44,450 nt of DNA, taken from UHGV virus genome UHGV-0157893, one strand, 5' to 3'. The translations under genes and the position numbers were made by a program. This document shows positions 10,276-44,450 of this stretch, one piece after another. The stretch's first letter is position 1. Each line of letters starts with the position of its first letter. The DNA comes from a virus. The notes under the pieces were generated by a model that had not been told where the DNA came from, did no database searches, and saw only the letters and a list, made by a program, of their open reading frames with translations.

Positions 10276-10284
10276 GGCGGCAAC

Positions 10285-11301: not shown

Positions 11302-11318
11302 ATCATTGTCACAATGAT
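11302..11318. promoter_or_regulatory. Perfect 17-bp palindrome (operator-like) in divergent intergenic region
   Basis: ATCATTGT-c-ACAATGAT, next to a conserved 25-mer (11275-11299) and a TTTACAAAATGG motif (11328-11339). Confidence 0.4.
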
Positions 11319-11409
11319 TATAGCTAGTTTACAAAATGGCTTCACATAGCACGCAACAAGATGTATATAGAAAGCAAGAAGAAAGTAGTACCAACGAAGG
11401 AGGCCCAAA

Positions 11410-11565: not shown

Positions 11566-11582
11566 GGATGATGGGGTGAGTT

Positions 11583-11837
11583 ATGAAACTGGTAGCGATT
11601 GACAGAAATCTGAAAGCACAGAAAAACGCACAGGATCGGATCATCAAGAAAGGTAAGGAATTACTTAAAGCCTTTCTGAGAAAAGAAGTTTACCCCAAAA
11701 AGTTACGCGACGGTTACGGATACAAAATGGATATCAATCTTGATTGGAGGCTGTTTAGCGAAGATTTGAAGGTTTGGTTAATTGTTGAGCACCATGCCTA
11801 TAACAAGTTATGTGGCGTGAAAGGCACTCATAAGTGA
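11583..11837 (+). CDS. Hypothetical basic protein
   Basis: ATG 11583 with GGGGTGAG RBS; 84 aa, Lys-rich N-terminus; co-oriented with the preceding small gene. Confidence 0.5.
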   Translation: MKLVAIDRNLKAQKNAQDRIIKKGKELLKAFLRKEVYPKKLRDGYGYKMDINLDWRLFSEDLKVWLIVEHHAYNKLCGVKGTHK

Positions 11838-11894
11838 GTCGAGATATTCGAAAGGGGATATATCGCGCGGAATGGTCGTTTATAAATACGAAAA

Positions 11895-11928
11895 ATAACC
11901 CCGGCATTGCACCGGGGTTTAGTTTATT
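11895..11928. terminator. Bidirectional terminator
   Basis: CCCCGG-cattgca-CCGGGG hairpin (11899-11917) with a T-run after it on plus and an A-run before it; ends the plus-strand cassette and the tape-measure gene. Confidence 0.6.
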
Positions 11929-14266: not shown

Positions 14267-14393
14267 GATTTAACCTCATGCAAAAATGTGATCTGTGTAT
14301 CTATTTTATACAAAATGGCTTTACTTCAATGACTCCATTTTGTATAAGGAAGCTAAAGGGAATGGTCAGTAAATCAAGTTAGCGTGGTGGGTT

Positions 14394-15053
14394 ATGAAAC
14401 GGTTAGCAAAAGTGGCAATGATTGCGGCGGTATTGGGTCTGGTTGGTTGCAATGAGGATAATGAAAAAGCGCCTATAGTGACCAATCAAGAGCAACAAGC
14501 ATTAGCAGAGAAAAATGCTAAATGGCTTGCAGAACAACAAGCAAAACAAGCCGCATACGATGCACAGTTAGAAAAAGAAAATGCTGGTAAACAGTGGCTT
14601 GTAGTTGAAAGAAAAGATGATATGCAGGACGCAAAAAACGTATTCCTTTTTGTGAAAGCAGAACAATTCAGCGGAAGTCTTGATGCTTTCCCGACACTGA
14701 AGGCACAGGATAAGAATAAACCGGTATTAACAATCGCTTGCCAGGGTAATAAAACAAAAATGTTCGTAGCATGGTCACACCATGTAACTGACGCCGGGGA
14801 CACTACTTATATTAACTACCGGATCGGCGTTCACAAAGCTGTAGCTACTGAGTGGTGGCGGTCAACTAATTATAAAGCTCTTGGATTATGGGACGGCAAA
14901 AAAGCCATCCCAATGATTAAAAAACTGGTTAACGAAAAACAATTCATCATTGAAGTAGTGCCGGAAGCTGGCGACATTGAGAAAGCAGTGTTTAACATTG
15001 ATGGTCTTTATAACCACATCGACAAAGTGAAAAACGCTTGCAACTGGAATTAA
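14394..15053 (+). CDS. Lipoprotein (moron; candidate superinfection-exclusion or envelope factor)
   Basis: ATG 14394 with GGTGG RBS; signal peptide with lipobox LVGC; 219 aa; plus-strand island in the tail module. Confidence 0.6.
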   Translation: MKRLAKVAMIAAVLGLVGCNEDNEKAPIVTNQEQQALAEKNAKWLAEQQAKQAAYDAQLEKENAGKQWLVVERKDDMQDAKNVFLFVKAEQFSGSLDAFPTLKAQDKNKPVLTIACQGNKTKMFVAWSHHVTDAGDTTYINYRIGVHKAVATEWWRSTNYKALGLWDGKKAIPMIKKLVNEKQFIIEVVPEAGDIEKAVFNIDGLYNHIDKVKNACNWN

Positions 15054-15063
15054 GGGGTAAATC

Positions 15064-15438
15064 ATGAAAAAAATAATCAAAGCGGTTCTCATTGGTGTTA
15101 TGGCTTTAGCTCTTACAGGGTGCGCAAGATCAACTGATTTCGTTAAGTTAGCTGATAAAAATTTGCAAGTTGGAATGACTTGTGAGCAAGTGAATAAAAT
15201 AATGGGGGAACCACAAAGAATCGAGCATGACGGTAATTATAGTTATCACGTATGGTATTCAGTAACCAGCACGATAGGATTTACTTACATGGATGTTGAA
15301 GAATTATCCCCTTCAAGGGTTATCGCAAAGTTTGATAACTGCATCCTAAAAGAATGGAAAGATCGCAGTAAGGCAAAGTCTGTATACAATACAATCACAC
15401 ACAGTTCACCAGGTACAGCAATTAAAGATTTCAATTAG
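15064..15438 (+). CDS. Lipoprotein with BamE/SmpA-OmlA-like motif
   Basis: ATG 15064; lipobox LTGC; LQVGMTCEQVNKIMGEP resembles the BamE fold signature; 124 aa. Confidence 0.55.
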   Translation: MKKIIKAVLIGVMALALTGCARSTDFVKLADKNLQVGMTCEQVNKIMGEPQRIEHDGNYSYHVWYSVTSTIGFTYMDVEELSPSRVIAKFDNCILKEWKDRSKAKSVYNTITHSSPGTAIKDFN

Positions 15439-18534: not shown

Positions 18535-19599
18535 TCAGGTATTGCTGCCGTAGACCACACCTGAACGACCTTTCATATCACAGGTGATCTGAAGACCCTC
18601 AGCAGACATAATGCGGAAGTTGTAGTTATCGGTCGGCATCATGCGCGGTAACGGAACTACGCCAGTGGTCATGCCAATCAGCGGGGTGATGACGCTGCGA
18701 CTACGCTGATAAGCGATAAATTCGTTGCCAGTCAGCGCATAGGTCTGGCGAATATCATCAACCGGGACAAACGGCTTGATAACATCCAGTACACTACCAA
18801 CAATTGCGCCATTAACGATGTGTGGGCGTGCCAGGTTAGCCATGATTTCTGGCGATACCCACATTACATCGTATTTAGCTACGAAGTTGGCGCGGGCCAG
18901 TTTCCCGAACTCACCAGTGGTAAAGAATTCAATAATCTTATCGAAAGTCGCGGTGGTCAGGTCGATTTTAGCGACAGATTTCAGTTTAAGTTGCTGGGTG
19001 TTTTTGTGGTTTTTAATACCCATTGCTTTATGACCATCTACCACGATATTGTCGTTACCGTTCAGATAGAACTGTACGCGGGCTTTATTGAATTTTTTCA
19101 GTTTCAGGCGTTGGCTATCCAGGGCGAGATCGATACCTACAGTATTCAGACCTTGAGCAAGACGCCAGTTGACACCATAACCAGCCGCGAACATCGGGAT
19201 CGGGTCGCCATCGCTGCCGTATTCGGTGTGATCAAAGCCGTGCGGCGCTTGACCATCCATAGACATCACGACTTCATCGTTGATGTCGCCGGATACGCTG
19301 TACATTTTCAGCGTTTTACCGATAGGCAGTACGGTTTGCACACCCATCAGGTCGTTGACGATTTCAATACCGATTTCTTCGGTGTTCAGTTCGATAATCT
19401 GGTTATCTATTTCTTTCCAGAATTCTTTTGCGAAGCCGCCGACGGCGTTACAGGTCAACATTTCAGCGGTCATATTTGCCTGATTTGCTGCAATCATGGC
19501 GTTGTGCTGCTCGTTGAAGATATTGCGTTGCGCCCACAGTTCTTTCCAATGGCCCTGCATACGGGCGTTGGTAGCAAGGTTTTCTTTAGTAAAGTACAT
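18535..19599 (-). CDS. Major capsid protein
   Basis: ATG 19599 with AAGGGGGA RBS; 354 aa; position after scaffold and decoration-like genes; rho-independent-looking stem-loop downstream. Confidence 0.65.
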   Translation of the reverse strand: MYFTKENLATNARMQGHWKELWAQRNIFNEQHNAMIAANQANMTAEMLTCNAVGGFAKEFWKEIDNQIIELNTEEIGIEIVNDLMGVQTVLPIGKTLKMYSVSGDINDEVVMSMDGQAPHGFDHTEYGSDGDPIPMFAAGYGVNWRLAQGLNTVGIDLALDSQRLKLKKFNKARVQFYLNGNDNIVVDGHKAMGIKNHKNTQQLKLKSVAKIDLTTATFDKIIEFFTTGEFGKLARANFVAKYDVMWVSPEIMANLARPHIVNGAIVGSVLDVIKPFVPVDDIRQTYALTGNEFIAYQRSRSVITPLIGMTTGVVPLPRMMPTDNYNFRIMSAEGLQITCDMKGRSGVVYGSNT

Positions 19600-21354: not shown

Positions 21355-22279
21355 ATTTAGCGTGCGCAACCTTATAGTTTTCTTGCGCCCGATCTAATAT
21401 TCGTTTGTTTAATATGTTACCGTCTTCGTCAACCAATACGGTAATCGTGCTACATTTGCAGTTAATTGAATTTGGGGATCTGCTCCACCATTCGCGCTGC
21501 TCATCTATGGTGTATGTTTTCCCGTGCCGCTGCGCGTGCGATAGCCTGGTAGTCGGTGACAATGCCGAAATGTGCATTTGCATGGTGCGCAGATTAAGCT
21601 CTTCTGTCGCCGCTTCTGCCTCATCCATACGCGCTGTGCGTAACGCTGTGCATATTTCAGTTCGGGCAATACGTTTGCACCTGTATAGCGGCAATTGCGT
21701 TTCCTGCTGCAATGTGCGCGCTATTTCCAGTGGATTTAAACCACGGGCCATCCCTTCGGTTAATCGCCGGGCCATATCCTTCTTGATCTGTGCTGTTAGC
21801 CCGCGCATTTCCTCAAATACACGGGTACGAACAAGGGCAAGGCGCGTGCGGTAAGTCGTACTTGATAGCACGGCGGATACATCAGGATAAGCGCTTGAGT
21901 AAGTAACAGACTGGTTGGCAAGGTTGGCGTATTCCTGTGCCGTGCCGCGCTGATATGCCACCTTCACGTATTCCTGCCAAAACCAAAAACTTTCCGGGTC
22001 GGTTAGCTCGAATATCTCATCAATCATGTCGCTGGCGTCCTCCAGCATGTCGTGCAATTCATCCATGTAAATCTGGAAGGTGTATTTCTTATTAACAGCC
22101 AGGCTATATTGTATTCTGTCCAGTATGGCGATATATGGATCGGCTATTTTCTTCAGGCAGGATTTGAAACGCTTAATAGCTCCCGACCGTAACTTACCTG
22201 TCATGGTCGGGTCTTCGGTGTTAGATGGCATTATCGCGGCGGGAGGTATTCGCCTGATTATTTTCTTCACCTTCATCAT
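21335..22279 (-). CDS. Head morphogenesis protein (SPP1 gp7 / Mu F-like minor head protein)
   Basis: ATG 22279 with GAGGA RBS; 314 aa; position right after portal. Confidence 0.6.
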   Translation of the reverse strand: MMKVKKIIRRIPPAAIMPSNTEDPTMTGKLRSGAIKRFKSCLKKIADPYIAILDRIQYSLAVNKKYTFQIYMDELHDMLEDASDMIDEIFELTDPESFWFWQEYVKVAYQRGTAQEYANLANQSVTYSSAYPDVSAVLSSTTYRTRLALVRTRVFEEMRGLTAQIKKDMARRLTEGMARGLNPLEIARTLQQETQLPLYRCKRIARTEICTALRTARMDEAEAATEELNLRTMQMHISALSPTTRLSHAQRHGKTYTIDEQREWWSRSPNSINCKCSTITVLVDEDGNILNKRILDRAQENYKVAHAKYGEDWE

Positions 22280-23591
22280 CGTTTTCCTCTTCCATTTCCA
22301 CTACACTGGCTGGGCCATCGTATCCGGCAGCCTCGCGGATCTCGTCACCGCTAAATATTTCTTCACCAGTAGCCAGGCAAGCCTGATTGATTTGCGCCAT
22401 TTTGTGTGCCGCTTCCAGTAGTTCGGCTTTGGTCATGGCGTTAAGGTCGTCCCACAGTACAGATACGTCTACTGGCATACCGATAAGGCGGAGATTTGCC
22501 ATCTTGCGGAATAGTTCTTCAAGCTCGCCTCCTATTTCCTCGCGGCGGGTCATACAGCGATTATTGAAGTAGCGGAGGTCTTCAGTTGATGCGCGTTCAC
22601 CCTGCTGATTCCCAACCAGGATACGCGTCGGGATGTCGATACCAGCGGCGGCAGTTTGCAGGTTGACGTCATAGGTTGCAGATGGATCGGCTACGGCAGT
22701 CACCAGCGGGCTAACACTTGCCCCTTGTAATGCCATCATCACATCATTACCCCTGTTCATTTCTGCTGCTGCCTCGTTGAATTTCTCGCGTAGCTCTGTA
22801 ACGTCGCAATCGTATGTTGCAGCCAGGGAACGGAAATCAATCTCTTTATCGAACGAGATAGCCAGTTGACGCGCGGCATTTTTCAGGAATGACTCACCGC
22901 TGCCGCCTTCCACTTTCTCCAGTGACACAAAGGCGTTATAGGAAGGCTCAAGGAAAGCGATGGCATCATCAGAATAGTCGCCAAATATGAATATGCGATC
23001 AGGGTGGATCTTTCTCGCAATGGTCTTACTGTTAATGCGTTCTTTGTATTCCCACCATGTTGGCAGGCCATAGTTTTCTTTATCCGGGTTTTCTTCGAAG
23101 TCCTTCGGCGTAAGAGCACCAGCCCACACAGGGGTGAATTTGGCAATGCCTACGCCTTTTGTTACTGGCTGATCCCACGGCTTATTATCTCTGACATGAA
23201 TTAACAGGCCCGCATAACGACCGATGAGGCGGCGGCGATCGCATTCAGCTATGACGCGCCAGAAACGATTATCAAATTGCTTTTTAATTTCTCTTTCCCA
23301 CGGCGTTTCCGTTTCTGCTTTCTCGTCTTCCGTACCTTCAATCAGCGTTGGCCTGGTGCGCCAGCACGTAGTAATGATCTTCTCAATGGCACCGTGAGCG
23401 ATACCACCGCGACGATACAGCTTGTAAAGATCTTCATAGGTGATTTCTTCTTTGAATCCGTATTCACTCCACGCAGCGTCACGTTTTGCATCAATACCCA
23501 TTGAGAATGGGTTAGCGGCTGCATAGCGGGCAAAGGCCGCCTGGCGTTGTGACAAGGCAGCATTAACCGCCAATTCTAAATTGGATGGCAT
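22221..23591 (-). CDS. Portal protein
   Basis: ATG at 23591 with AGGAG RBS (the earlier ATG at 23612 lacks an RBS); 456 aa with acidic C-terminus; directly downstream of terL. Confidence 0.7.
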   Translation of the reverse strand: MPSNLELAVNAALSQRQAAFARYAAANPFSMGIDAKRDAAWSEYGFKEEITYEDLYKLYRRGGIAHGAIEKIITTCWRTRPTLIEGTEDEKAETETPWEREIKKQFDNRFWRVIAECDRRRLIGRYAGLLIHVRDNKPWDQPVTKGVGIAKFTPVWAGALTPKDFEENPDKENYGLPTWWEYKERINSKTIARKIHPDRIFIFGDYSDDAIAFLEPSYNAFVSLEKVEGGSGESFLKNAARQLAISFDKEIDFRSLAATYDCDVTELREKFNEAAAEMNRGNDVMMALQGASVSPLVTAVADPSATYDVNLQTAAAGIDIPTRILVGNQQGERASTEDLRYFNNRCMTRREEIGGELEELFRKMANLRLIGMPVDVSVLWDDLNAMTKAELLEAAHKMAQINQACLATGEEIFSGDEIREAAGYDGPASVVEMEEENDDEGEENNQANTSRRDNAI

Positions 23592-23669
23592 AATGTTTAC
23601 TCCTGAATACATGTTTACGCGTTGCTACGCGAAAAATAGAAAAATTAGTGAGTGATTGTGAGGCAGATT

Positions 23670-25148
23670 TTAAAATCCGCGCAGGCGCTTAGGTAACATG
23701 AGGCCCATTGCCTGCGGCTGGCTTAATTCAGTGATACCCCATACCATTGCGTCGAGGCGGTCAGGTGATTTTTTAGCGGTAGCTGGAACGTATTCCATCA
23801 TTTGATTTTCCAGCGTGTACAGGCTGCCTGTGTGGGCCACCCTTCCCTGTGCATACAGTGCCGATATTGGCTCGGCGCGGGCGAATTTACCCTTGCTTGC
23901 GTGCACCTTAACAATGCGGCCTTTGAATCCGGCGTTACGTAGCGTGGCCTCTGCCATTTCGCCGCCCTGGTTTGTTTCGATAACTATCGCGTCAGCTTCA
24001 TGGATGTTGTAGGCGTTCATTGATGCCTGCGCCCAGTCGTTAGGAGACATACGGCCTGAGTAGTCGCCATCAACAGAATACTGAGCATTTTTACCGCCAC
24101 CGTAAGCGGAACATGCAACGATCCCCGTTTCGTCCGATTCTTCCGATGATGTTGTAGCCGGGTCGATAGCTATTACCGTGCGGATCTTGTCCTGCGTTAT
24201 CTGCATCCGGTGCGCTGCGGTTATCATGGCTTCAGTCCACAATGCACCCTCTTCGTCGAATTTACGCGGGCGCTGCATGTACTGGGCCTCGAATGACCGC
24301 CTGTGTGCTTTCAGTCCAGCTTCATGAATGTCATTGTGCTTTTTAGGCCACAGCCATCCATCAGGCAGGTTGTGAGGAATGGGTATTGCGAACTCGTTTT
24401 CAGGGTACAAATCCCTGTAGTCAACGCTATTGTCGATCTTCACTGGCAGGTTAAGGTGATACCACTTCTCACCGCTTCCACCTCGTAACAGGTAGCCGGA
24501 CAAATCATCGTAGTGGATGCGCTGCATGATGACGATAACAGGCGTTGTTTGCACTGCCAGACGTGAAGCAAGTGTGTCGTTATAGTTTGTGTTTACCTGC
24601 TTTCTCACCACGTCAGAGTAAGCGTCAGCGGGTTTTAATGGGTCGTCGATGATTAACGCGCCGTTAAATCCCGGCTCCATATACCCAGCACGGAACCCAG
24701 TTACCTGGCCCAGCGATGACGTTGCATACACGCCGCCACCGTATTCAGTCCACCACATCGATTTCGAGTTGGCATCGTTGCGGATCTTCATGGGCCACAT
24801 TGCCTGATAGTCAGGCGTACAGATCATGTTTCTTACAGTCGAGGAATTGAGTAACGCCAGGTTGTTGGAATAGGAAACGTGAAGGAATCTTGTGCGGGGA
24901 TTTATTGCGAGGGACCGCGCCATCATGTTGATGGTAGCGATCATGGTTTTACCGTACCCTGGGGGAATGTTAATGATGAGGCGGGTTATCTCACCATTAA
25001 TAACGCGTTGTAGTGCATCGCGGATAGCTATGTGATGACCTGAGACAAACATCTTCGTACCGTTTGCTTGCTTGTAGAAATAGCGGTTGAAAAACAGGCC
25101 ATCGTTTTCACATTTGGACTGAATAACTCGTTCTTTGATTGTCAACAT
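23670..25148 (-). CDS. terL: Terminase large subunit
   Basis: ATG 25148 (track start is GTG 25154), GAGGTG RBS; Walker A-like PPGYGKT, Walker B-like LIIDDP, C-terminal nuclease-type acidic motifs. Confidence 0.85.
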   Translation of the reverse strand: MLTIKERVIQSKCENDGLFFNRYFYKQANGTKMFVSGHHIAIRDALQRVINGEITRLIINIPPGYGKTMIATINMMARSLAINPRTRFLHVSYSNNLALLNSSTVRNMICTPDYQAMWPMKIRNDANSKSMWWTEYGGGVYATSSLGQVTGFRAGYMEPGFNGALIIDDPLKPADAYSDVVRKQVNTNYNDTLASRLAVQTTPVIVIMQRIHYDDLSGYLLRGGSGEKWYHLNLPVKIDNSVDYRDLYPENEFAIPIPHNLPDGWLWPKKHNDIHEAGLKAHRRSFEAQYMQRPRKFDEEGALWTEAMITAAHRMQITQDKIRTVIAIDPATTSSEESDETGIVACSAYGGGKNAQYSVDGDYSGRMSPNDWAQASMNAYNIHEADAIVIETNQGGEMAEATLRNAGFKGRIVKVHASKGKFARAEPISALYAQGRVAHTGSLYTLENQMMEYVPATAKKSPDRLDAMVWGITELSQPQAMGLMLPKRLRGF

Positions 25149-25150
25149 AA

Positions 25151-25636
25151 TCACACCTCGTCTTCTACTTCCTGGACGATGCGGGCGATCTCTTCTTTCG
25201 TGACTTCAACCTGAACGGGCGCTTCTTCCTTGTTGCCGACGATCTCCTGTGTGACGCGTTCGCCGTATTTGCGCGGCTGAAGTTTTGCCAGTAGCCACTT
25301 GCGCGTTTCAATCATTAGTTGGTGGCGTCGCAACTGATCTTTATCTGCGTTCTCTGCTGCATCAGCCAGATCGATGATTTCATCAGCCAATACCTCGAAG
25401 CCGATCTCCTTCGCGCGCGCGTACATGATCGAGAATTCCGGTACATCCCTAAACCATTTCAGGATTGTGGAACGGGTAGGCATACCAGGCATTTTCGAAA
25501 TTTTATTAATACTCTGACCATCCGCCACCAGTTCACAGATTTCTAATGCTTTTTCTTCGGTATAACCATGCGGACGGCCCACCTTTTTAGCGGCTGGCTT
25601 TTTATCGTCAGCCTTTGCCTTTTTAGTGCGGGCCAT
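25151..25636 (-). CDS. terS: Terminase small subunit
   Basis: ATG 25636 with GAGGTG RBS; Lys-rich N-terminus then HTH-like KALEICELVADGQSINKISK; stop abuts terL start. Confidence 0.7.
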   Translation of the reverse strand: MARTKKAKADDKKPAAKKVGRPHGYTEEKALEICELVADGQSINKISKMPGMPTRSTILKWFRDVPEFSIMYARAKEIGFEVLADEIIDLADAAENADKDQLRRHQLMIETRKWLLAKLQPRKYGERVTQEIVGNKEEAPVQVEVTKEEIARIVQEVEDEV

Positions 25637-25647
25637 AATTTCACCTC

Positions 25648-25734
25648 TCAAAACCATTTGCACAGAATATATAAACACGCAATTAATGTTGCGCAGTATG
25701 TTAATACTTCCAACCAGTCGAATAGCTCTTTCAT
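25648..25734 (-). CDS. Tiny hydrophobic ORF 6 (28 aa, predicted single TM helix)
   Basis: ATG 25734 with AAGGG RBS; MKELFDWLEVLTYCATLIACLYILCKWF; stop TGA 11 nt before the terS RBS. Confidence 0.45.
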   Translation of the reverse strand: MKELFDWLEVLTYCATLIACLYILCKWF

Positions 25735-26967: not shown

Positions 26968-27450
26968 TTATTCTTTGCGTAAGCACTGCGTTTTGATGTA
27001 GTCCTGTAGGCCAGTGATCTGTGCGTCTTTCGTTTTTAGTTGTTCTCTGAGGGATAGATAAGCTGATTCAGCTGATTTAGAGAGTTGGCAGGTGGCTCCA
27101 TCAATGCGGCTGGCGGTTCCTGCGGAGTCGGACACTCGCACGGGTATTGCGTTGACGCGCAGCCTGATAGTGCCGTTATCAATGCCAGTGCGCAGATCGG
27201 CAATGTCAGATCTGATAGCTTTAATCTCATCGTGATACCTCTTATCAAGTTTTGACAGTTCGGCGTTTCGCTCCTTCATCTGCTGAATAGTGTTACTTGC
27301 TGTTTTCAGTGCGCCTTGCGTGGTCGTTAATTCTTCCTGTAACCTTGTCGCCTCACTCTGGTAATGGCATGTTACGGCTGTAAGGCTGGCAATGATGCAA
27401 ACAACAGCGGCGATAATTAACGCCTTCACCTTGTCCACGTTTCCCCCCAT
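26968..27450 (-). CDS. Rz: Spanin, inner membrane subunit (Rz)
   Basis: Track start TTG 27456; ATG 27450; N-terminal TM helix then coiled coil; follows endolysin. Confidence 0.75.
27036..27230 (-). CDS. Rz1: Spanin, outer membrane lipoprotein subunit (Rz1), embedded in Rz
   Basis: ATG 27230 with AAGAGGT RBS; lipobox LSGC; Pro-rich mature region; fully inside Rz in another frame. Confidence 0.7.
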   Translation of the reverse strand: MRLKLSDLTLPICALALITALSGCASTQYPCECPTPQEPPAALMEPPANSLNQLNQLIYPSENN

Positions 27451-27917
27451 TCGCAAACGGCATATTCAACATCACGGCGGTTTACCAGGCCTTGCCACTT
27501 CTTACCGCCAGCGTATACCCAGCGTTTAAGCTGTGCGCACGCTTCTGATTTCTTGCCGTCATTGAGTAGCTTTAATAAGGTTGATGTTTTGAAGTTGGTT
27601 GCGCCTACGTTATAGGCGAATGAATAAAGTGCTGCGCGGGTAAAATCTGATACTTCGACTTTGATATATGGGTCAATCGCTTTTGCGGTCTTGTGTAGAT
27701 CTTTATTTAACAAAGCATCGCATTCTGATTGCGTGTAAGTCTTGCCCAACATGATGTCTTTTCCGGTGTGACCATAGCAAACAGTCCATACACCAACAAC
27801 ATCACGATAAGGATCGTATTCCACGCCCTCTAATGGCTTAATCATCACCGCCGCAATAGCGATCGCCCCACCAGCCGCCGCCGCAACAATTTTGTTTTTC
27901 AGCGATTGGCTAATCAT
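27426..27917 (-). CDS. SAR endolysin (T4-lysozyme-like, GH24 type)
   Basis: ATG 27917 overlapping holin stop; N-terminal Ala/Gly-rich weakly hydrophobic helix (SAR-like); catalytic-region [23 protein letters not shown]. Confidence 0.8.
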
Positions 27918-27918
27918 G

Positions 27919-28119
27919 TTACTTATTCCCCATTCGCGCGTCGTGTTCCTCTTGCGCTCGCTTGTTCTCCTGTGATTTAAAGTAATAATTAACGGCAAAT
28001 GTGCCAATGGTTGATAGGATACCCACGAAGACGGCAACGTCATTTATGGTTATCGCACCGAAAAAAGCGGTTACGGTCCCAGTAACATAAGCGCACGCCG
28101 CCCGTATTCTGTCGAACAT
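27919..28119 (-). CDS. Holin (pinholin-like, two TM segments)
   Basis: ATG 28119 with GGAGGT RBS; 66 aa; two hydrophobic helices and charged C-terminus; directly upstream of SAR endolysin. Confidence 0.7.
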
Positions 28120-29932: not shown

Positions 29933-30182
29933 CCGGCCCCTAGTTTTATTCGTCTTTGTCTCCTTTAAATCCCAAACACTCCGCGTATTCGTCAATGCTT
30001 AATGCTTCTTCACCTGGTGCCAGCAATTCAAAGTAGCGGGCGTATAGTTCAAAAACCCATGCCGGATATTTAGCGTTAGCGTTCATCTTCTTACCTCCCA
30101 TTCGTCTTTCCGTGGCTTATATGTAACAAAATGGCACTGCCTAAACAATGCCATTTCGTAAACTTTGTGTGGTAGATCACAT

Positions 30183-32964: not shown

Positions 32965-33154
32965 CATCGTCACCCCGCTTGTAAATTTTGACAGGCTTAA
33001 TAGGGATGGCTGGCAATTCGCCTTCATTTAACGCGCTTGCCATACCCAATATTAAACGCGCTTCCGCGCCAGTGACTTTCTTACACCATGCGCCGCCTGT
33101 TTTATCTTCAAATAAGATAACGGCAAACTGATCGTTTATTTCCAGCTTATCCAT
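32954..33154 (-). CDS. Hypothetical protein coupled to Q
   Basis: ATG 33154 with GGGGTGA RBS; TAATG overlap with Q stop. Confidence 0.5.
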   Translation of the reverse strand: MDKLEINDQFAVILFEDKTGGAWCKKVTGAEARLILGMASALNEGELPAIPIKPVKIYKRGDDDEA

Positions 33155-33876
33155 TATTCACCCCGTGTCACTCGTTTGATTTCACTTTCCGCGCGGCCCT
33201 CTTCTTTGAATAGCTCCGCTATGGCGTCTTCATAGAAAACCCGGTATTTTTTCCACCAGGTTGATCGGCTTACCGGAAAAACAAGCTGATTAACGGCCTG
33301 ACGCACAAGATCTACGGGGAAACGCGAGTACCCGCGCCCGCCGCAATGCTGGCACGTTTTGAACACTGGCATTTCCGCCGCTTCGCTGGCTGCTTTATCC
33401 GGTACTTCGCCACGGCCCTTGCATTGTTTACAATGATTGAGAACCTTCCCATGCCCCTTGCATTTTTTGCAAAGGTGTTTTTCTCCGTATTCGTCAAACG
33501 TAAATTTATATCCGCCGCACTCCATACAAGTTTTTTCCGTCGCGGCACTCTGGCAATAATCCCGAAACGCGAAAACGGCAACAAGAATAATGAGATCATT
33601 GCGTTTAGCCTCGTCCAGTTCCATAACGTATTCATAATCTTTTGCCATAGCCTTTAAACGCTCTATAAGCAAAACTACGGCCTTATGTTTTTCGGCTTGT
33701 GATAGTTCCATCTTTCCCAGAAAAGCGCTATAACCAAGCTCTACGCGCGATTGCGCCATACCAGCGGCAGTTAGCGCATCCGTAGTATTAAGCGCATCCG
33801 GGGACGTGCCCCGGCTTTCATCTGACAAACGCGGTGATTTTGGGAAGTGGAATTTAAGAATAGATTCCAAATTCAT
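33154..33876 (-). CDS. Q: Late gene antiterminator Q (phage 82 / phi80 type)
   Basis: ATG 33876 with GGGGGT RBS; N-terminus MNLESILKFHFPKSPRLSDESRG matches the remembered phage 82 Q start; multiple CxxC zinc-finger pairs. Confidence 0.8.
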   Translation of the reverse strand: MNLESILKFHFPKSPRLSDESRGTSPDALNTTDALTAAGMAQSRVELGYSAFLGKMELSQAEKHKAVVLLIERLKAMAKDYEYVMELDEAKRNDLIILVAVFAFRDYCQSAATEKTCMECGGYKFTFDEYGEKHLCKKCKGHGKVLNHCKQCKGRGEVPDKAASEAAEMPVFKTCQHCGGRGYSRFPVDLVRQAVNQLVFPVSRSTWWKKYRVFYEDAIAELFKEEGRAESEIKRVTRGE

Positions 33877-34060: not shown

Positions 34061-34462
34061 TTACCACCACATATTAGTCAAGTATTCGTTAATATCCGGT
34101 AACAGGTCGCCGCGTTCGCGTACCTTGATAAACAATCGCCCTCTTTTTACCTTCCGGCAGCGGACAAATTTCATTGCGTCAACCTGGCTATCATCAGCCC
34201 AAAAACCGGAATAAGTTATAGCGTCAAATAATGCCTTCCCTACATTGTCAATATCGCGGCGTCTGTTATCTGGCGGTGCAATATACACCGTTATTGATAG
34301 CCTACACTTAAGATTAATTTTCAGATTAAGCAGTTTTATAATGTCTTTTACCTGCTCCCTGTATTCCTTACCTTCCTTGCTTATATAGTGGAAACCGCGC
34401 GAATGCCGGTAATATTTATTGTTCGATGGCGGGTAAGGCAGGCTAAAAGTATATTCATTCAT
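34061..34462 (-). CDS. rusA: Holliday junction resolvase RusA
   Basis: ATG 34462 (ATGA overlap with ninG stop); 133 aa; PPSNNKYY and DIDNVGKALFDA are RusA-type motifs. Confidence 0.8.
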   Translation of the reverse strand: MNEYTFSLPYPPSNNKYYRHSRGFHYISKEGKEYREQVKDIIKLLNLKINLKCRLSITVYIAPPDNRRRDIDNVGKALFDAITYSGFWADDSQVDAMKFVRCRKVKRGRLFIKVRERGDLLPDINEYLTNMWW

Positions 34463-35064
34463 GCTGCCTTTCTCCTTAAGGCGTCCAATTTAGCCTGATA
34501 GACTTTTATGATCTCCTTGCATTCTTCGATCGCCCATTTATGAGTTTCGTTGTTGTTCTCCAGCGCTTCCACCCTGGCAAGGCCAATTTTCCTAATCAGC
34601 GCTGGGCGATATGCTTCTATGTTGCCATCTAATGTCTGGTTGCAGTGCCTGCATTGTTTGTGGCAATTATCCTCGTTAAAACGAAGGTGCCCGGCGGCGG
34701 CAACCGTTCTATAGTGTCCGGCATCTGCTCCGCATTGTTCGTAATAGTAAGTCCCGCATGATATGCACGGCTGACCCGCGTCACGTTCGCGGATATAGGC
34801 ATTAAATACCGCTTGTGCCTGCTTCAACCAATAACTACGCGGATTTAACTGCTTCCGCTTCCGGTTGCGTTCTTCCCGCTGGCTATCACGGCGTTTCTTC
34901 CGTTCCATAGCCTTCATAGCCTTCTCACGGTCGCGGCATAGCTGATCAAACTTCAGCTCTTCCAGACACTCATCACTGCACCACGTTTGATTGTGATATT
35001 TAGGCTCAAAAAAAACGCCGCAGCACTTGCAACGGCGTCTTATTGGTTTTTTAGGGTTCTGCAT
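34459..35064 (-). CDS. ninG: NinG / Rap-like recombination protein
   Basis: ATG 35064 with GGGGTGG RBS; aligns by eye with lambda NinG (RRRCK, PRSYWLKQAQ, PCISCGT, DAGHYRT, RFNE.N.HKQC). Confidence 0.8.
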   Translation of the reverse strand: MQNPKKPIRRRCKCCGVFFEPKYHNQTWCSDECLEELKFDQLCRDREKAMKAMERKKRRDSQREERNRKRKQLNPRSYWLKQAQAVFNAYIRERDAGQPCISCGTYYYEQCGADAGHYRTVAAAGHLRFNEDNCHKQCRHCNQTLDGNIEAYRPALIRKIGLARVEALENNNETHKWAIEECKEIIKVYQAKLDALRRKAA

Positions 35065-35078
35065 AAAAACCACCCCTA

Positions 35079-35255
35079 TTATTTTTGATTCTCTGTTTCG
35101 TTCAGCCTTTCGGTGTGTCCGGCCCTTAGCCAATGATCTAAGCATTCGTTGCACTCGTTACAGCCTCCTTTCTTTGTGCTGCATACATTGCACATTGCAC
35201 GCATGACGCTTTCTCGTTCATAGTCGTCATGCCATTGGTAATTATCAAAAGACAT
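35079..35255 (-). CDS. ninF: NinF-like small Cys-rich protein
   Basis: ATG 35255 with AGGGAGGGAG RBS; 58 aa with CxxC...CxxC pattern; upstream of ninG. Confidence 0.5.
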   Translation of the reverse strand: MSFDNYQWHDDYERESVMRAMCNVCSTKKGGCNECNECLDHWLRAGHTERLNETENQK

Positions 35256-35376
35256 AATGCTCCCTCCCTTTAAGGTGATTTCTACGCATTTCAGCGCTGC
35301 CGGATTTTTAAAGAGCATTTCGTTTGCTTGAAGTATACAAAATGGATACACGTAAACAAGACGAAAAGCGCCATTA

Positions 35377-35392
35377 TGTGACCTGTATCACA
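35377..35392. promoter_or_regulatory. Perfect TGTGA-N6-TCACA palindrome (CRP-consensus-like) in 160-bp intergenic region
   Basis: tgtgacctgtatcaca at 35377-35392, flanked by inverted copies of the GTATACAAAATGG / CCATTTTGTAAAC motif. Confidence 0.4.
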
Positions 35393-35414
35393 CAATGACG
35401 CCATTTTGTAAACT

Positions 35415-36179
35415 TCAGTCCGGTAAAACGCGGTTGAGCGTAGTACGATTGATGGCCCGGTCGTTAGCCAGGAATACAGCACGGGCAAAGCCACGCGGCG
35501 TTAGTGAGCGGATCATCTTAGTGCGTTTCGACTTTCCTCCTAACTTAGCGTGCTGCTTACTGTCTTCCCATTCATCAGGCATTGGCACAGGCAGGAATAG
35601 CGGCTGATTAAATCCATTCCCGCACCAGATACAAGTTTTCTTCGTGTATGCGTCGCGGTCGGCGATGTATTCCGGGAAGGCAGGATGTTTGTCATCTTCA
35701 GGCAGGTAGCCACCGTAAGCGCACGGGTTGAAGATAAAATCCGGCTTACGCCATAACGTTGACAGTGCGCCAACCGGATTTTCCACCATCCACGGGACGT
35801 GATACATGTCAGCCAGCGTTTCTACCAGTTTTGCGTTATATGCCGCCTTCACCTGGAAGTCAGGATCTTTTTCACGCTTGCTGGCAAACCAACGAGCGCC
35901 GGACACGGCTAGATGGTCGCATGGCGGGAAGGCCAGAATAATGTCAGGATCTGGATAAACAGACAAATCAGGGGAGAACATCACCAGGAAATGGCTGTCA
36001 ATCCATACGTTAACGTATTCAATATTCGGATGAATGATTTTTACGCCTTCATAGTCGCCGTGGTTAGCGCCGTCATAGTTGAAGCAATAACACTTATAGC
36101 CAGCGTCAGCCCAATCTTTAACGGCGTACCCGCTGCCGTCGTACAGCGACCACACCACCCAATTTTTAAGCCCACTCAT
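35415..36179 (-). CDS. Putative DNA (cytosine-5) methyltransferase-like protein
   Basis: ATG 36179 with GAGGG RBS; SLYDGSGYA (motif I-like), FPPCDHLAVSGARW (PC motif IV-like), MVENPVGAL (ENV motif VI-like); short for a C5-MTase, so tentative. Confidence 0.4.
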   Translation of the reverse strand: MSGLKNWVVWSLYDGSGYAVKDWADAGYKCYCFNYDGANHGDYEGVKIIHPNIEYVNVWIDSHFLVMFSPDLSVYPDPDIILAFPPCDHLAVSGARWFASKREKDPDFQVKAAYNAKLVETLADMYHVPWMVENPVGALSTLWRKPDFIFNPCAYGGYLPEDDKHPAFPEYIADRDAYTKKTCIWCGNGFNQPLFLPVPMPDEWEDSKQHAKLGGKSKRTKMIRSLTPRGFARAVFLANDRAINRTTLNRVLPD

Positions 36180-38867: not shown

Positions 38868-38966
38868 CTTGTTTTCCTCCGTGCCGTAAACCTTTTGATT
38901 TCGGTTTACAAAACGGATACGCGATCACAACACAAAATGTATATTTATGTGATCGCAATCACGCTG

Positions 38967-40850: not shown

Positions 40851-41144
40851 TTAATCATTAATGACCTGGCCCATACGCCCGCGATATTTGCGCATACGTG
40901 GATCGACATATTCAGGCCAGTGCATATCCGGTTTTCTTTGCAGCGGATAAAAACTTGCCTGCCAGTTGTCGAACCATATTTGTTTTGCGTACAGGTCACT
41001 AAATCTTTTTGCCATCCGTTCCGCTGCCGTGCCGCATAAAAAAAGCCCATGATCTATTTGATCACGGGCTTCTTTTAGAACTTGCTCTTTTGTTCGCGGA
41101 ATCGGCGGCGCATCAAGATAGCGCGTAGATCCTGCTTTTGCCAT
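40851..41144 (-). CDS. Hypothetical protein
   Basis: ATG 41144 (overlaps ssb 3' end by about 30 nt); start uncertain. Confidence 0.4.
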   Translation of the reverse strand: MAKAGSTRYLDAPPIPRTKEQVLKEARDQIDHGLFLCGTAAERMAKRFSDLYAKQIWFDNWQASFYPLQRKPDMHWPEYVDPRMRKYRGRMGQVIND

Positions 41145-41574
41145 ATTGTAACCCCATAGGAGCAAATGGGATGTCGTCATCGAAATCAGGAGGGACATCA
41201 TTCCCGTTATTATTTTGAGGCGGTGGCGCTTTCTGCTGCTGGCCTTGCTGCTGGCCTTGTTGGTTAACGTTCATGAATTCAAATTCGTTAACCGCCACTT
41301 CTACCGCCGTTCCCTTCGTGCCGTCGTTCCGGTCATATTGCCGAACATCCAGGCGACCGCTTACCACTATTTTTCCACCCTTGCGGATATGTGGCGCTAA
41401 TTTTTCCGCACGCTCACCAAATACCAGGCAAGTGACCCACATTGTCCGCTTATTATCGCCGTAGCCATTCGTTACAGCTAACGGAAAACTACCAATCGCT
41501 TTCCCGTTTTGTGTGTAGCGAACCTCCATATCATTACCGATATTCCCGCCCAGCGTGATTGAATTTAAACTCAT
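41113..41574 (-). CDS. ssb: Single-stranded DNA-binding protein
   Basis: ATG 41574 (TAATG overlap with erf); OB-fold-like N-terminus, Gln/Pro-rich linker, C-terminal acidic tail DFDDDIPF. Confidence 0.85.
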   Translation of the reverse strand: MSLNSITLGGNIGNDMEVRYTQNGKAIGSFPLAVTNGYGDNKRTMWVTCLVFGERAEKLAPHIRKGGKIVVSGRLDVRQYDRNDGTKGTAVEVAVNEFEFMNVNQQGQQQGQQQKAPPPQNNNGNDVPPDFDDDIPFAPMGLQYGKSRIYALS

Positions 41575-42218
41575 TAACCCATCTCCCCGTTAAGCTCTGC
41601 TACCCGGATGTCATAAACATCTTTTGCCTTGATTCGATGTTCCGATCCTTCCGGTAGTAATTTCCAGCATTTGCCAAATATTTCACGCAGCTTGTTAGCG
41701 TCCTGCGCTTTCGCTGCTGCATCACAGAAACGTGCTAATACTTCATCAGGATTTGGCGGCGCTTTCTGCTGCTGTGGTTGTTGTTTTGGTGGGTTTTTCT
41801 GCTGGCGAGGCTGCTGGCCTGTCTGCTTAGCGTATGCGTCAGTATCAGGATCTCGCGCATCATCAATGCAGAATAAACCGTTCAAAGCATATTTTCGCGC
41901 GTAACTTGATGTCGCACCTGTTAGCTGGCTTGCGTCCATTCCCTTCTTGCTTTCTTCTTCCCTGGCGTAAGCCGTTGCCGCTATTTCGTCTTCACCGTCG
42001 CTTAGCGTCGCCGTAGCTTTCACATAATAGCGATTGCCGATCAGGACAATTTCATCGCTTACAGTCAGCGTAATACTTTGAAGCAGTGGTTTAACCGCCT
42101 CTAAAATATCCTCCGCCGACCTGTAATTATATCCACCAAAATTATTACGCTGATTTTTCGGCGCGTTCAGCGTTTGCTGAACCGTCCATAGCTTTTTATG
42201 TAACTCTGTTTTCACCAT
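41574..42218 (-). CDS. erf: Erf-family single-strand annealing recombinase
   Basis: ATG 42218 with GGGAG RBS; 214 aa; ERF-type N-terminal domain followed by Gln/Pro-rich region. Confidence 0.7.
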   Translation of the reverse strand: MVKTELHKKLWTVQQTLNAPKNQRNNFGGYNYRSAEDILEAVKPLLQSITLTVSDEIVLIGNRYYVKATATLSDGEDEIAATAYAREEESKKGMDASQLTGATSSYARKYALNGLFCIDDARDPDTDAYAKQTGQQPRQQKNPPKQQPQQQKAPPNPDEVLARFCDAAAKAQDANKLREIFGKCWKLLPEGSEHRIKAKDVYDIRVAELNGEMG

Positions 42219-42334
42219 TTAATCTCCCGTGCTGTTAACACTATGTATAAGGCTTTATTCGCGGCGCTCCACATTTCGGCATCGTGAAGCATTTCCGCTA
42301 CTGCCAGTTTGAATTGAAGCGCCTGAATAACCAT
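42212..42334 (-). CDS. Possible small ORF (40 aa) upstream of erf
   Basis: ATG 42334 with GGAG RBS; overlaps the erf start by 7 nt. Confidence 0.3.
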   Translation of the reverse strand: MVIQALQFKLAVAEMLHDAEMWSAANKALYIVLTAREIKW

Positions 42335-42364
42335 AATGTCATCTCCGGATGTTTACATTTTGTA

Positions 42365-42655
42365 TTAATGGTAGCGGACTTTATCCAGGGGTTTTTCCCC
42401 TAAATGGCGTGGTTGCGTTGCGTGGTAGTAGCTGCCGCTTTCATTTTCCGTATACCATTTTACTGATCCTTTGCGACGTTCTTTAATGCTATTTGGTTTG
42501 CATCTTTCCTCGTTTGCAAATCGAATAGCTTTATCCACATTGTCTGTTTTATTGATTGCAGGTGATGATTTTCTTTCGTTTTCTCTTTTTATCCTTCTGC
42601 GTTCCCTGGCATTCATTTTGCTATCACATTTACCATATATAATTGTAACGCTCAT
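42365..42655 (-). CDS. N: N-type transcription antiterminator (P22 gene 24-like)
   Basis: ATG 42655 with GGAGA RBS; MSVTIIYGKCDSKMNARERRRIKR resembles the P22 gp24 N-terminus and arginine-rich motif; first gene after the leftward promoter. Confidence 0.6.
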   Translation of the reverse strand: MSVTIIYGKCDSKMNARERRRIKRENERKSSPAINKTDNVDKAIRFANEERCKPNSIKERRKGSVKWYTENESGSYYHATQPRHLGEKPLDKVRYH

Positions 42656-42711
42656 AATCTGATCTCCGTATATCCTTGATGATACTTAATAAAAAATCAT
42701 CTTCGTTAATT

Positions 42712-42750
42712 GCCGCACTTCCAGCGGCTGACCAGATTGTTAATGAGCGG
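42712..42750 (-). promoter_or_regulatory. nutL-like site (boxA-like CGCTCATTA plus boxB-like hairpin)
   Basis: Minus strand: CGCTCATTAA, 11 nt, GCCGC-TGGAAGT-GCGGC; lies between the PL-like promoter and N. Confidence 0.4.
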
Positions 42751-43003
42751 CTTAACATCTTTCAACTAATCCCGCAATCATCGCCGTTCCCGGCGTGACC
42801 TTGCTCACTCCAAGCAAGCTGACTCGTCGCCTTGCGTGCGGTTTCGTGGGGGATGTAACGCTTTAAACACCCCATGCGCCTTGTTATCAGTGCCGCTTTC
42901 GGTCCCCCATCGGGGAGTTACTCCACGGTTGACAAGGTGTTAAGCCTGATTTTTAAAGTGCCAGGAAGTTGCTTTTGTTACCTGCGCCCTTCCTTTGACT
43001 CGC

Positions 43004-43032
43004 AATATACGCCCCGTAAAACATCGAGTCAA
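43004..43032 (-). promoter_or_regulatory. Strong sigma70-type leftward promoter (PL candidate) within an inverted repeat
   Basis: Minus strand TTGACT, 17 nt, TATATT; overlapped by inverted repeat TTGACTCG...CGAGTCAA (42995-43032) and abutted by the CCATTTTGTATAC motif (43034-43046). Confidence 0.55.
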
Positions 43033-43124
43033 TCCATTTTGTATACTTTTTTAAAATATTTTATATGCCATTGATATTTAAATAATAAATAACGTTTTCT
43101 GTTTACGTTTTGGTGTTTTCCAGG

Positions 43125-43150
43125 CAAAGAAAAGCCGCCATTCGGCGGCT
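43125..43150 (-). terminator. Terminator after the repressor gene
   Basis: Minus strand GCCGCC-gaat-GGCGGC then TTTTCTTTG, directly 3' of the cI-like stop. Confidence 0.6.
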
Positions 43151-43155
43151 AATGT

Positions 43156-43803
43156 TTATGGCAGGTTTACGATCTTCGCATCAACCACCACGCCTATAAT
43201 TTTTGATTCTGGATTCATAGGGATTGGCGGATACAGCGGATTGAGCGAACGTAAAAGCCTTTGACCTCCATCAATAATCAACTGTTTAAACGTCGGTATC
43301 TGCCCTTCCTCAAGCTGGGCTATAACCAGTTTGCCGTCAATAGCTGGCGCGTGCGGGTCCACAAGTATCATCGTCCCCGCCGGGATGCTCAACCCCTGCG
43401 GCGCGTTCATTGATTCACCTTTGGCAACCAGCCAGTAACTGTCATCTGAACAAATAACGCTAGTCGTAACGTGTCGTAATGCTGAACGCCTTGCGTCATC
43501 CATATTGTTTACTGTGTCCTTCCAGTCAATAACCGGGTAACTACCTAAATCACGCGGCGGCACGGCCTGAAGTGTATTAGAAACAGAATCATCAATGACC
43601 ATACCATCATGTGTAACAGTGAACTGCCGACGACCAAGCTCTCGCATAATCCGCGCAATATCTTCAAGATTTGGCTCGCGGCGACCGTTCAGCCAGTGTG
43701 ACAGGCCGCCTTTAGTTATCCCCATGCGATCCGCTAGTGAATCCTGGCTCATGCCCTGCGCCCGCATGAGCTGCTTTGCTAAGTCATACCATTTTGTTTT
43801 CAT
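43156..43803 (-). CDS. cI: CI-like repressor (HTH_XRE plus S24 LexA-type peptidase)
   Basis: ATG 43803; HTH (QDSLADRMGITKGGLSHWLNGRR); C-terminal S24 domain with GESM (Ser) and a downstream Lys (KQL). Confidence 0.85.
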   Translation of the reverse strand: MKTKWYDLAKQLMRAQGMSQDSLADRMGITKGGLSHWLNGRREPNLEDIARIMRELGRRQFTVTHDGMVIDDSVSNTLQAVPPRDLGSYPVIDWKDTVNNMDDARRSALRHVTTSVICSDDSYWLVAKGESMNAPQGLSIPAGTMILVDPHAPAIDGKLVIAQLEEGQIPTFKQLIIDGGQRLLRSLNPLYPPIPMNPESKIIGVVVDAKIVNLP

Positions 43804-44108
43804 GTCGCTACCCTATAACCTCAAAAAGTTTGATGCAAGTCACAAAACGTGTATTTTAAGCCTTGATCTTAAAATTCCATTTTGTAAACTTGCAGACAAG
43901 GTAAGGCCATACTTGCAAAGACGCAAGGAAAAAGATAACGGAAGGCACAAAAAGGCACTTACCTTAAGCTCTTTAAAAATCCGGTGTCGCTGCGAAGCGA
44001 AAAACAAATATCACGCAACGGCGGGATCTGTTGAGCGGTCAGTCACTGCTATCTAATGCTAATGGGATGCCCGCCCGCGCGTTCACTCTAACCATAGGAG
44101 AAAACACG

Positions 44109-44366
44109 ATGAGTATGCACATGATGAATGAAGTATGGAACGTAAAACTTAACAGCCCGATTCAAAAACTTGTCTTAATGGCTCTGGCTGAAAAGGCAGA
44201 TAACAAAGGACGGGTACATGATGCATCACGCAAAGAAGTAGCCGCAATGTGTGAACTTCCTGTTCATACGGTACATGATGCCTTCGCCGCGTTAATGGAT
44301 AAAGGATTTGTTTGTCGTCTTGATGCATTCAGTGATGTCTATGTAGTGATGTTGCCGGAGGGATGA
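44109..44366 (+). CDS. Winged-helix DNA-binding protein (HTH_36-like), first gene of rightward operon
   Basis: ATG 44109 with AGGAG RBS 8 nt upstream (track frame starts at TTG 44031); SPIQKLVLMALAEKADNKGRVHDASRKEVAAMCELPVHTVHDAFAALMDKGFV matches the HTH_36 pattern. Confidence 0.55.
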   Translation: MSMHMMNEVWNVKLNSPIQKLVLMALAEKADNKGRVHDASRKEVAAMCELPVHTVHDAFAALMDKGFVCRLDAFSDVYVVMLPEG

Positions 44367-44369
44367 TCT

Positions 44370-44450
44370 ATGAAGTGGTTTAAGCATGACAGCGATGCGA
44401 ACCGCGATGAAAAACTTCAAAACGTTTTGTTAGATTATGGCCTGGAAGGG
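44370..44450 (+). CDS. Replication initiation / replisome organizer protein, N-terminal fragment (runs off window)
   Basis: ATG 44370 with GGAGGG RBS; MKWFKHDSDANRDEKLQNVLLDYGLEG matches the conserved N-terminus of DUF4373 (Lin1244-like) phage replication proteins. Confidence 0.55.
   Translation, partial: MKWFKHDSDANRDEKLQNVLLDYGLEG

Follow-up and report, generated by a model that had tools for sequence, protein, structure and literature searches.

A CI/N/Q early-control region without a recognisable cro gene in UHGV-0157893, a probable member of the mEpimmI phage group

How is a CI-type repressor locus wired when nearly the whole phage lies colinear on the repressor strand and no cro gene stands beside it? 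The question is raised by UHGV virus genome UHGV-0157893, a stretch of 44,450 nt (the window, always meant at its full length), in which a CI-like repressor gene (Rep, immunity group I; 43156-43803, minus strand) is followed across a short interval by divergent replication genes. The first-pass annotation had described N, recombination, nin, Q, lysis and structural genes as colinear on the strand of cI, with replication divergent, and Pfam and PHROG calls bear this description out. It had offered either a different regulatory wiring or a recombinant or rearranged prophage as the explanation. In our reading, the locus is probably the immunity and early-control centre of a temperate siphophage of the mEpimmI (mEp021-like) group integrated in E. 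coli, with the wiring proposed below. The architecture and the three-nut wiring are already published, and the missing cro is a normal, conserved trait of the family. What had been noticed was seen correctly and belongs to a phage family described in print; it is neither a new element nor an artefact.

Every defining feature of the mEpimmI group that could be tested is present, namely the repressor, the antiterminator Gp17, the three nut positions and the synteny. The window is colinear with mEp021, mEp010, mEp013, mEp044, mEp515, mEp554 and MagusPhagus, each of which aligns as a single block covering 65-91% of each half at 85-90% nucleotide identity; six of these seven are experimentally studied mEp isolates (PMC11893012). 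The 3-kb control region is 88-92% identical to that of the six mEp phages and, over its N-side half, 98% identical to that of MagusPhagus. The same region is present in 35 of 5426 complete E. coli genomes, with 100% identity in several prophages, and 44 IMG/VR contigs (31-77 kb) carry a repressor 90-100% identical to that of the window, the same interval of ~305 bp and the same neighbours. A search for more distant relatives of the repressor in species-representative genomes found none. The repressor (HTH_3, 1.5e-12; Peptidase_S24, 5.8e-19; Pfam) is 92-95% identical to those of mEp021, mEp515, mEp010 and two prophages. The N-like early antiterminator, a homologue of mEp021 Gp17 (42365-42655, minus strand; 96 aa, arginine-rich; phrog_271 'anti-termination protein N-like', 1.3e-13), is 93% identical to mEp021 gp17 and keeps the motif NARERRRIKR (R17, R19-21, R24). 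The conserved arginines described for Gp17 are 17, 19, 20 and 24 (PMC11893012).

The same comparison disposes of the idea that the layout comes from a recent rearrangement, from an inversion in the assembly or from a prophage that is recombinant or defective, which we regard as scarcely credible. Its sole attraction is the departure from the lambda order, and that order recurs in seven independently sequenced phages, in 35 complete E. coli chromosomes and in 44 IMG/VR contigs, and has been reported in 48 genomes (PMC11893012). In the GenBank record of mEp021, int is followed by a leftward-reading replication arm that ends in gp13 and gp14; the other strand then carries the repressor gp15, gp17, erf, ssb, ninG, rusA, Q, lysis, terminase, head and tail genes and J. 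Since the published mEpimmI group has exactly the same order, the window does not represent a rearranged prophage. Misassembly is likewise rejected, by the conserved synteny and by a complete prophage, with an intact int and both halves of abgT, in strain GN05505, which is identical to the window over 41500-44450 and separated from it elsewhere by an indel of ~1.1 kb. This 54-kb prophage is bracketed by the two abgT halves and has int at its replication end. Its rightward operon encodes a zinc-ribbon protein, a DnaB-type helicase, an annotated Lrp/AsnC-like regulator, NinB and small open reading frames (ORFs), and meets a convergent tyrosine integrase; cro is nowhere annotated in its flanking DNA. 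The suggestion of a different regulatory wiring was the correct one of the two that had been offered, although it had previously been documented in the mEp021 annotation and by Negrete-Mendez et al. (PMC11893012).

Much of what the window implies is known from that work. The group layout is conserved in 48 syntenic genomes, cloned Rep021 confers immunity, and Rep blocks infection by every family member tested (Negrete-Mendez et al. 2025, PMC11893012). The type phages are Nus-dependent, have siphovirus morphology and do not recombine with lambda; members of the group integrate at ydaM, abgT, mppA or a fourth described locus by means of four integrase types, and in human faeces the family is reported at the same frequency as lambdoid phages (PMC11893012). 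Their repressors have no Ala-Gly cleavage site and their lysogens are not UV-inducible (PMC11893012). Within this group, the sequence comparisons indicate that the phage of the window is a distinct strain or a species-level variant.

In the wiring that we propose, the CI-like repressor gene would be flanked by two early promoters. Leftward, a strong sigma-70 promoter at 43032-43004, downstream of the repressor terminator, would transcribe a structured, nut-bearing leader of 340 nt, and transcription would go on into the gene for the N-like antiterminator, one for a Kil-like peptide and recombination genes of P22 type (erf-ssb-abc2). Beyond several terminators, nutR2 and a second promoter-like site (35402-35284) would lead into ninF, ninG, rusA and Q, and Q would then open the lysis, packaging, head and tail genes on the same strand. 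What looks like a single leftward string may thus be two tandem early units plus a Q-dependent late unit; scanning the DNA from Q to the holin gene for a late promoter gave nothing decisive. Rightward, a weak, non-consensus promoter in the 305-bp interval would read through nutL into a replication operon that would start directly with the initiator (split into gp14 and gp13 in most genomes), continue with the helicase and NinB and end against the convergent integrase. Beyond the published circuit, we infer the exact promoters, the operators and a switch that runs without a Cro-type second repressor.

The leftward unit is the better defined of the two. An intrinsic terminator (43133-43150, minus strand; a 7-bp GC-rich stem, then a T run) lies directly after the repressor gene; it is annotated as TERM_1 in mEp021 and corresponds to t1 of the mEp021 papers, which is stated to have been shown experimentally (PMC11893012). 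Downstream of it lies the predicted sigma-70-type promoter of the N operon (43004-43032, minus strand; -35 TTGACT, 17 nt, -10 TATATT), the top-scoring site of the region with 10 of 12 matches and hexamers that are invariant in relatives. Between the ATG of the N-like gene and the transcription start predicted near 42997, the leader (42656-42997, minus strand; ~340 nt) folds with a minimum free energy of -119.8 kcal/mol vs. -95.5 +/- 5.7 for shuffled sequences (z = -4.3), and shows 96% column identity across six genomes. As a structured, nut-containing RNA it recalls the RNase III-processed N leader of lambda. A long-range helix (42946-42934 paired with 42761-42749) encloses ~170 nt between two boxA-like elements of the leader. 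An Rfam scan of the whole window returned no family. An antisense ORF of 66 codons in the leader (42874-43074) was dropped, as in relatives it is anywhere between 19 and 70 codons long.

Gp17, together with host Nus factors, antiterminates at three nut sites: nutL upstream of the repressor gene, nutR1 upstream of gp17 and nutR2 after the methyltransferase genes (PMC11893012). A 17-nt boxA-like sequence has four matches in the window vs. 0.19 expected, and these lie at the three published nut positions. The nutL site (43968-44000, plus strand) consists of a boxA, GCTCTTTAAAAATCCGG, at 43968-43984 and a boxB hairpin, UCGCUGCGAAGCGA, at 43987-44000; its boxA is the exact 17-mer of the nutR2 position, is invariant in 31 sequence variants, and its position agrees with the legend of Fig. 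7 in PMC11893012. Two elements lie in the N leader, both on the minus strand. The first, GCACTTTAAAAATCAGG (42945-42961), stands ~36 nt after the predicted start, carries two mismatches to the 17-mer of nutL and nutR2 and is invariant in relatives. The second (42712-42748), which is conserved and lies 57 nt before the ATG of the N-like gene, combines a boxA-like GCTCATTAACAATCTGG with the hairpin GCCGC-UGGAAGU-GCGGC; its boxA (42732-42748) has three mismatches to the 17-mer. A boxA, a spacer of 2-3 nt and a hairpin are the layout common to nutL, nutR2 and this copy at 42732, and the element at 42712-42748 is our best candidate for the published nutR1.

The nutR2 module (35284-35402, minus strand) is made up of a terminator (35402-35367), a promoter-like site (TTGTTT-16-TATACT, 35359-35332), a boxA (35316-35300) that is an exact copy of the 17-mer, and a boxB (35297-35284), and is conserved in mEp021 and GN05505. 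Its terminator, just upstream of the promoter-like site, has a 16-bp stem and is the strongest predicted in the early region, and ninF, ninG, rusA and Q lie downstream of the module. A promoter ahead of nutR2 is suggested by this arrangement. The hairpin at 35367-35402 is kept in mEp021, though its loop and stem sequences differ. A CRP-like motif, TGTGA-N6-TCACA, in the same segment (TGTGATACAGGTCACA, 35367-35402, minus strand) is a perfect match and was set aside, as it forms the top and stem of the 16-bp terminator hairpin.

On the rightward side, the DNA between the repressor gene and the first rightward gene spans 43804-44108, exactly the 305 bp that had been stated. This gene-free control interval, which would hold the repressor promoter, the rightward early promoter, nutL and a leader, is 301-307 bp long and 89-100% identical in the 44 IMG/VR contigs with the same repressor. 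The best candidate for the rightward early promoter (43863-43890, plus strand; -35 TTGATC, 16 nt, -10 TAAACT; 8 of 12 matches) lies 77 nt upstream of nutL and shares its build with the site before nutR2, and it is here that rightward transcription would begin. Folding of the rightward leader was no more stable than that of shuffled sequences (z = -1.2).

No recognisable cro-like ORF had been seen in this interval, and this observation stands, with no conserved cro ORF in about 50 related genomes. The interval wholly contains no plus-strand ORF of at least 20 aa, and among 50 proteins of the window Pfam scans found a Cro/CI-type helix-turn-helix (HTH) in the repressor only. As a positive control, the same tools did find cro and cII in L056 (IMG/VR contig 2852055501_000007), whose repressor is, at 37% identity, the nearest outside the family; its order is cI, divergent from cro (HTH_3, 2e-14), then cII (Phage_CP76), small ORFs and an O-like initiator (HTH_36 + DnaD_N). 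The paper on the mEpimmI group uses the word cro only for lambda (PMC11893012), and the absence of cro and cII in these phages is unaddressed in the accessible literature on the family.

One plus-strand ORF of 84 codons, overlooked at first pass, does begin at an ATG at 43802, overlapping the start codon of the repressor gene, and runs to 44056, where it could be taken for a basic Cro-like protein. It is open in the window and in about 20 near-identical genomes, and the annotators of MagusPhagus called a coding sequence there. Against this, in all five aligned relatives (mEp021, mEp515, mEp010 and two prophages) it either meets a stop at codons 37-59 or has no ATG. Of 50 genomes about 20 keep it open and the others have 9-58 codons of it (9 to 85 overall), with frameshifting indels in its middle. 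It has no Shine-Dalgarno sequence and would span nutL and the promoter of its own operon. Because its reading frame is not conserved, the ORF is refuted as a cro gene, and we give this explanation practically no weight.

The gene that does occupy the position of cro is the first rightward gene, a gp14-like winged-helix gene of 85 aa (44109-44366, plus strand; PHROG, AF2 model). It is followed by the first 27 codons of a gp13-like DUF4373/Lin1244_N replication protein (44370-44450, plus strand; ATG at 44370), which is cut by the end of the window. Both had been labelled correctly at first pass, as HTH_36-like and DUF4373-type: homologues of gp14 at 60-70% identity carry PF13730 HTH_36, and the gp13 counterpart in GN05505, the genome identical over the region, is a 350-aa Lin1244_N protein (formerly DUF4373; 7e-11). 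The gp14-like protein itself has no Pfam match at E<=0.01, and the Cro/CI families (HTH_3, Cro, P22_Cro) are not matched. It does match the N-terminal 70-89 positions of six replication-initiation or O-like PHROGs (best phrog_4617, 2.9e-22). Profile searching against 1.8 billion representatives yielded 1481 remote matches, mostly to residues 1-72 of proteins of 220-350 aa; in a sample of ten, HTH_36 was N-terminal in all and a weak DnaD_N was present in seven. The AF2 model is a winged helix (pLDDT 84.7), and Foldseek against the PDB retrieved generic winged helices, none at E<=1e-3; with generic winged helices only, the fold cannot separate a regulator from an initiator domain. A PDB sequence search with gp14 was uninformative.

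Could gp14 nevertheless be a functional Cro that represses the repressor promoter? It stands directly after the control interval, divergent from the repressor, has a small winged-helix fold, and is named a MarR-family regulator by PGAP. Lambda Cro, too, is a small winged-helix-like protein. Its sequence relatives, on the other hand, are the N-terminal domains of replication initiators, and among homoimmune phages gp14 is only 33-68% identical vs. 92-95% for the repressor and >90% for the interval. It varies instead with gp13: in mEp021 and mEp010 gp14 is 33-34% identical and gp13 is also divergent (62-63%, with the differences N-terminal), and phages with gp14 at 60-68% have gp13 at 84-94%. 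An identity of 33% within one immunity group with near-identical operator DNA speaks against a Cro function, and nucleotide similarity to mEp010 and mEp021 ends a few bases before the gp14 start codon. The domain is also not always a separate gene. In two IMG/VR contigs (L035, L040) the first gene is a fusion of 330-332 aa that joins HTH_36 to the conserved C-terminal two-thirds of gp13; in another (L050) the DUF4373 protein directly follows the interval and gp14 is missing; and in L056 the gp14-type domain forms the N-terminal part of the O-like protein, whose gene lies beyond a true cro and cII. Gp14 thus shows neither membership of a Cro-type HTH family, nor co-variation with the repressor, nor presence in every homoimmune member, and we consider a Cro role for it improbable. 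In these comparisons it behaves as a free-standing, exchangeable DNA-binding part of the replication initiator rather than as an immunity-specific Cro. The initiator, which at L035, L040 and L050 lies upstream of the repressor at about 3700-4700, occurs in three architectures within one family (split gp14 + gp13, fused, and gp13 alone), a natural domain-swap series for origin recognition.

A further explanation is that the family does have a Cro, and perhaps a CII, analogue that sequence does not reveal, either a small leftward early ORF or the Lrp/AsnC- or MarR-like regulator past the helicase. A second regulator is found in nearly all temperate phages, no Pfam family was assigned to ~40 ORFs of 50-130 aa lying at 28.4-41.2 kb, and the rightward operon encodes a 185-aa protein annotated as a regulator. 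These points are offset by the 50 scanned proteins with no HTH family match, by the report that most small early ORFs are flexible rather than core (PMC11893012), and by location, as a product encoded kilobases from the operators and behind terminators would act late. We regard such a hidden analogue as unlikely, if much less so than a Cro role for gp14.

At somewhat less than even probability, mEpimmI phages may run a lambda-style CI/N/Q circuit that has neither CII nor a second repressor of the Cro type, and commit to lysis by other means. In that case gp14 would have no regulatory role and would be an origin-binding domain that can be detached. Possible substitutes for Cro would be a recurring 16-nt element, an antirepressor-like moron and promoter interference. 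If true, such a bistable switch, built on CI, N and Q and lacking both Cro and CII, would provide a useful natural exception to the lambda paradigm; what the present analysis adds to the published picture is evidence that gp14, which alone occupies the cro position, is part of the replication initiator.

The 16-mer, TCCATTTTGTAWACTT, has 14 copies with at most three mismatches in the window vs. 1.2 expected; they are mostly intergenic, are oriented toward the downstream gene and have counterparts at matching positions in mEp021. One copy abuts the -35 of the N promoter (43033-43048; TCCATTTTGTATACTT on the plus strand), and further copies lie at 43876-43891, 35331-35346, 35400-35415, 38902-38917, 30150-30165, 14334-14349, 11325-11340, 11258-11273, 9730-9745 and 2290-2305. 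In one orientation the 16-mer overlaps the spacer and -10 of candidate promoters, namely the rightward one (at 43876-43891), that of nutR2 and one at 38.9 kb. Read the other way round, it has its core, ACAAAATGG, directly next to the -35 of four strong promoter-like sites bearing ACAAAATGG(A/C), at 43004-43042 (minus), 9674-9712 (plus), 11331-11373 (plus) and 14310-14355 (plus). These are built of a -35 of TTGACT, TTGATC, TTCACA or TTTACT, a 17-nt spacer and TATAnn, and precede the N operon and, in three plus-strand islands, an antirepressor-like, a ParE-like and a VasI-like moron. Inverted pairs of the form ACAAAATGG-N15-CCATTTTGT occur at 14310-14349 and 30122-30165. The first codons of the repressor (MKTKWYD; 43783-43797, minus strand) spell ACAAAATGGTATGAC, another copy of the motif core.

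Several points weigh against the reading of the locus and its switch given here. The 16-mer may serve as an operator for the repressor, as a site for a different regulator, or as a common promoter or UP cassette. A search for repressor operators among repeats common to both promoter regions yielded several TTGC/GCAAG half-palindromes and the 16-mer, with no consistent dyad. Both promoters of the 305-bp interval score below the scan threshold, and the control DNA is ~90-96% identical in the family, so that conservation gives little power to tell functional from neutral bases. The absence of cro is negative evidence by profile methods, and the ~40 small early ORFs of no recognisable family could hide a regulator; outside the window, the rightward operon has its annotated Lrp/AsnC- or MarR-like regulator, for which Pfam gave no match. 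The window itself is without int and att (the attachment site), whose placement is suggested by relatives, the prophage with identical 41500-44450 occupying abgT. Finally, no complete genome in the collections is identical to the window throughout; the closest reaches 96% identity over its left half.

The remaining genes follow the order of the group. Directly after the N-like gene lies a Kil-like ORF of 40 aa (42212-42334; PF06301, 2.2e-4, weak and under the family cut-off), and a Kil-like protein is listed among mEpimmI proteins too (PMC11893012). All on the minus strand, and by Pfam/PHROG unless stated otherwise, there follow Erf (41574-42218), SSB (41113-41574) and the anti-RecBCD protein abc2 (40851-41201); numerous small ORFs and methyltransferase genes between abc2 and NinG; NinG (34459-35154), RusA (34061-34462) and the Q-type late antiterminator (33154-33876; PF03589 Antiterm, 1.6e-28); lysozyme (27426-28043) and Rz (26968-27456); the Sf6/P22-type small terminase TerS (25151-25678), TerL (23670-25154) and the portal (22221-23612; Phage_portal_3, 3e-18); and the capsid (18535-19599), tape measure (11924-14266), L (8925-9629) and J (2734-7704). 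The portal homologue in GN05505 bears the RefSeq name 'anti-CBASS protein Acb1 family protein', probably a misleading automatic label.

Plus-strand exceptions in the window are four moron islands amid the tail genes, at 2392-2694, ~9640-10713, 11410-12007 and 14394-15438. The second, between tail genes L and M and with upstream ORFs from ~9760, encodes an 82-aa protein (10285-10533) with a partial KilAC antirepressor domain (ANT, 1.1e-6). No LexA box that would link this antirepressor-like moron to the SOS response was found in the window; the repressor reportedly has no Ala-Gly site either. The third island encodes a ParE-like toxin (PF24732, 9e-12) and small neighbouring ORFs, a moron between tail genes; its divergent promoter region contains a perfect 17-bp palindrome, ATCATTGTGACAATGAT (~11290-11306), probably its own operator. 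In the fourth, a 219-aa protein with a type VI secretion VasI domain (14394-15053; PF11319, 1.2e-15) lies between the tape-measure and tail-tube genes.

How, then, does the locus compare with known systems? With the mEpimmI phages it shares the repressor (92-95%), Gp17 (93%), the three nut positions, the order from tail fibre to integrase and 85-90% nucleotide identity over most of the window; from mEp021 itself it differs in its gp14/gp13 allele, only 33% and 62% identical. By gene order (cI/cro, cII, then replication, nin, Q and late genes in one rightward operon) the phage falls outside the lambdoid definition, whereas functionally its circuit is of the lambda/P22 type, with the lambdoid features of N- and Q-type antitermination and a CI-type repressor (phrog_271, PF03589, HTH_3 + S24). 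Lambda has in common with it a CI-type S24 repressor between two early promoters, an arginine-rich N-type antiterminator encoded after a nut site of its own, an N leader that is long and structured, a Q-type antiterminator, NinG, RusA, NinB, J, L and the tape measure. The nin-Q-lysis-morphogenesis block, however, follows the N/recombination operon here and the replication operon in lambda. Further differences from lambda are the three nut sites, the absence of cro and cII between repressor and initiator, the position of int beyond and convergent to the replication genes, and the repressor without an Ala-Gly site in lysogens that are not UV-inducible (PMC11893012). P22 resembles the window in an N-side operon with erf, SSB and abc2, in its Sf6/P22-type small terminase and in a KilAC-type antirepressor-like gene in a separate island; no Mnt/Arc-type immI region was recognised in the window. 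In contrast, the P22 rightward operon reads cro-c1-18-12-nin-23, and P22 is a podovirus, while the genes here point to a lambda-like siphovirus. The L056 prophage shares the repressor N-terminus MKTKWYDLAK with an S24 domain (37% identity) and an initiator whose N-terminal HTH_36 domain is homologous to gp14. It differs in its classical divergent order of cI and cro, with cII and an O-like gene following cro, and shows what the mEpimmI layout lost or never had.

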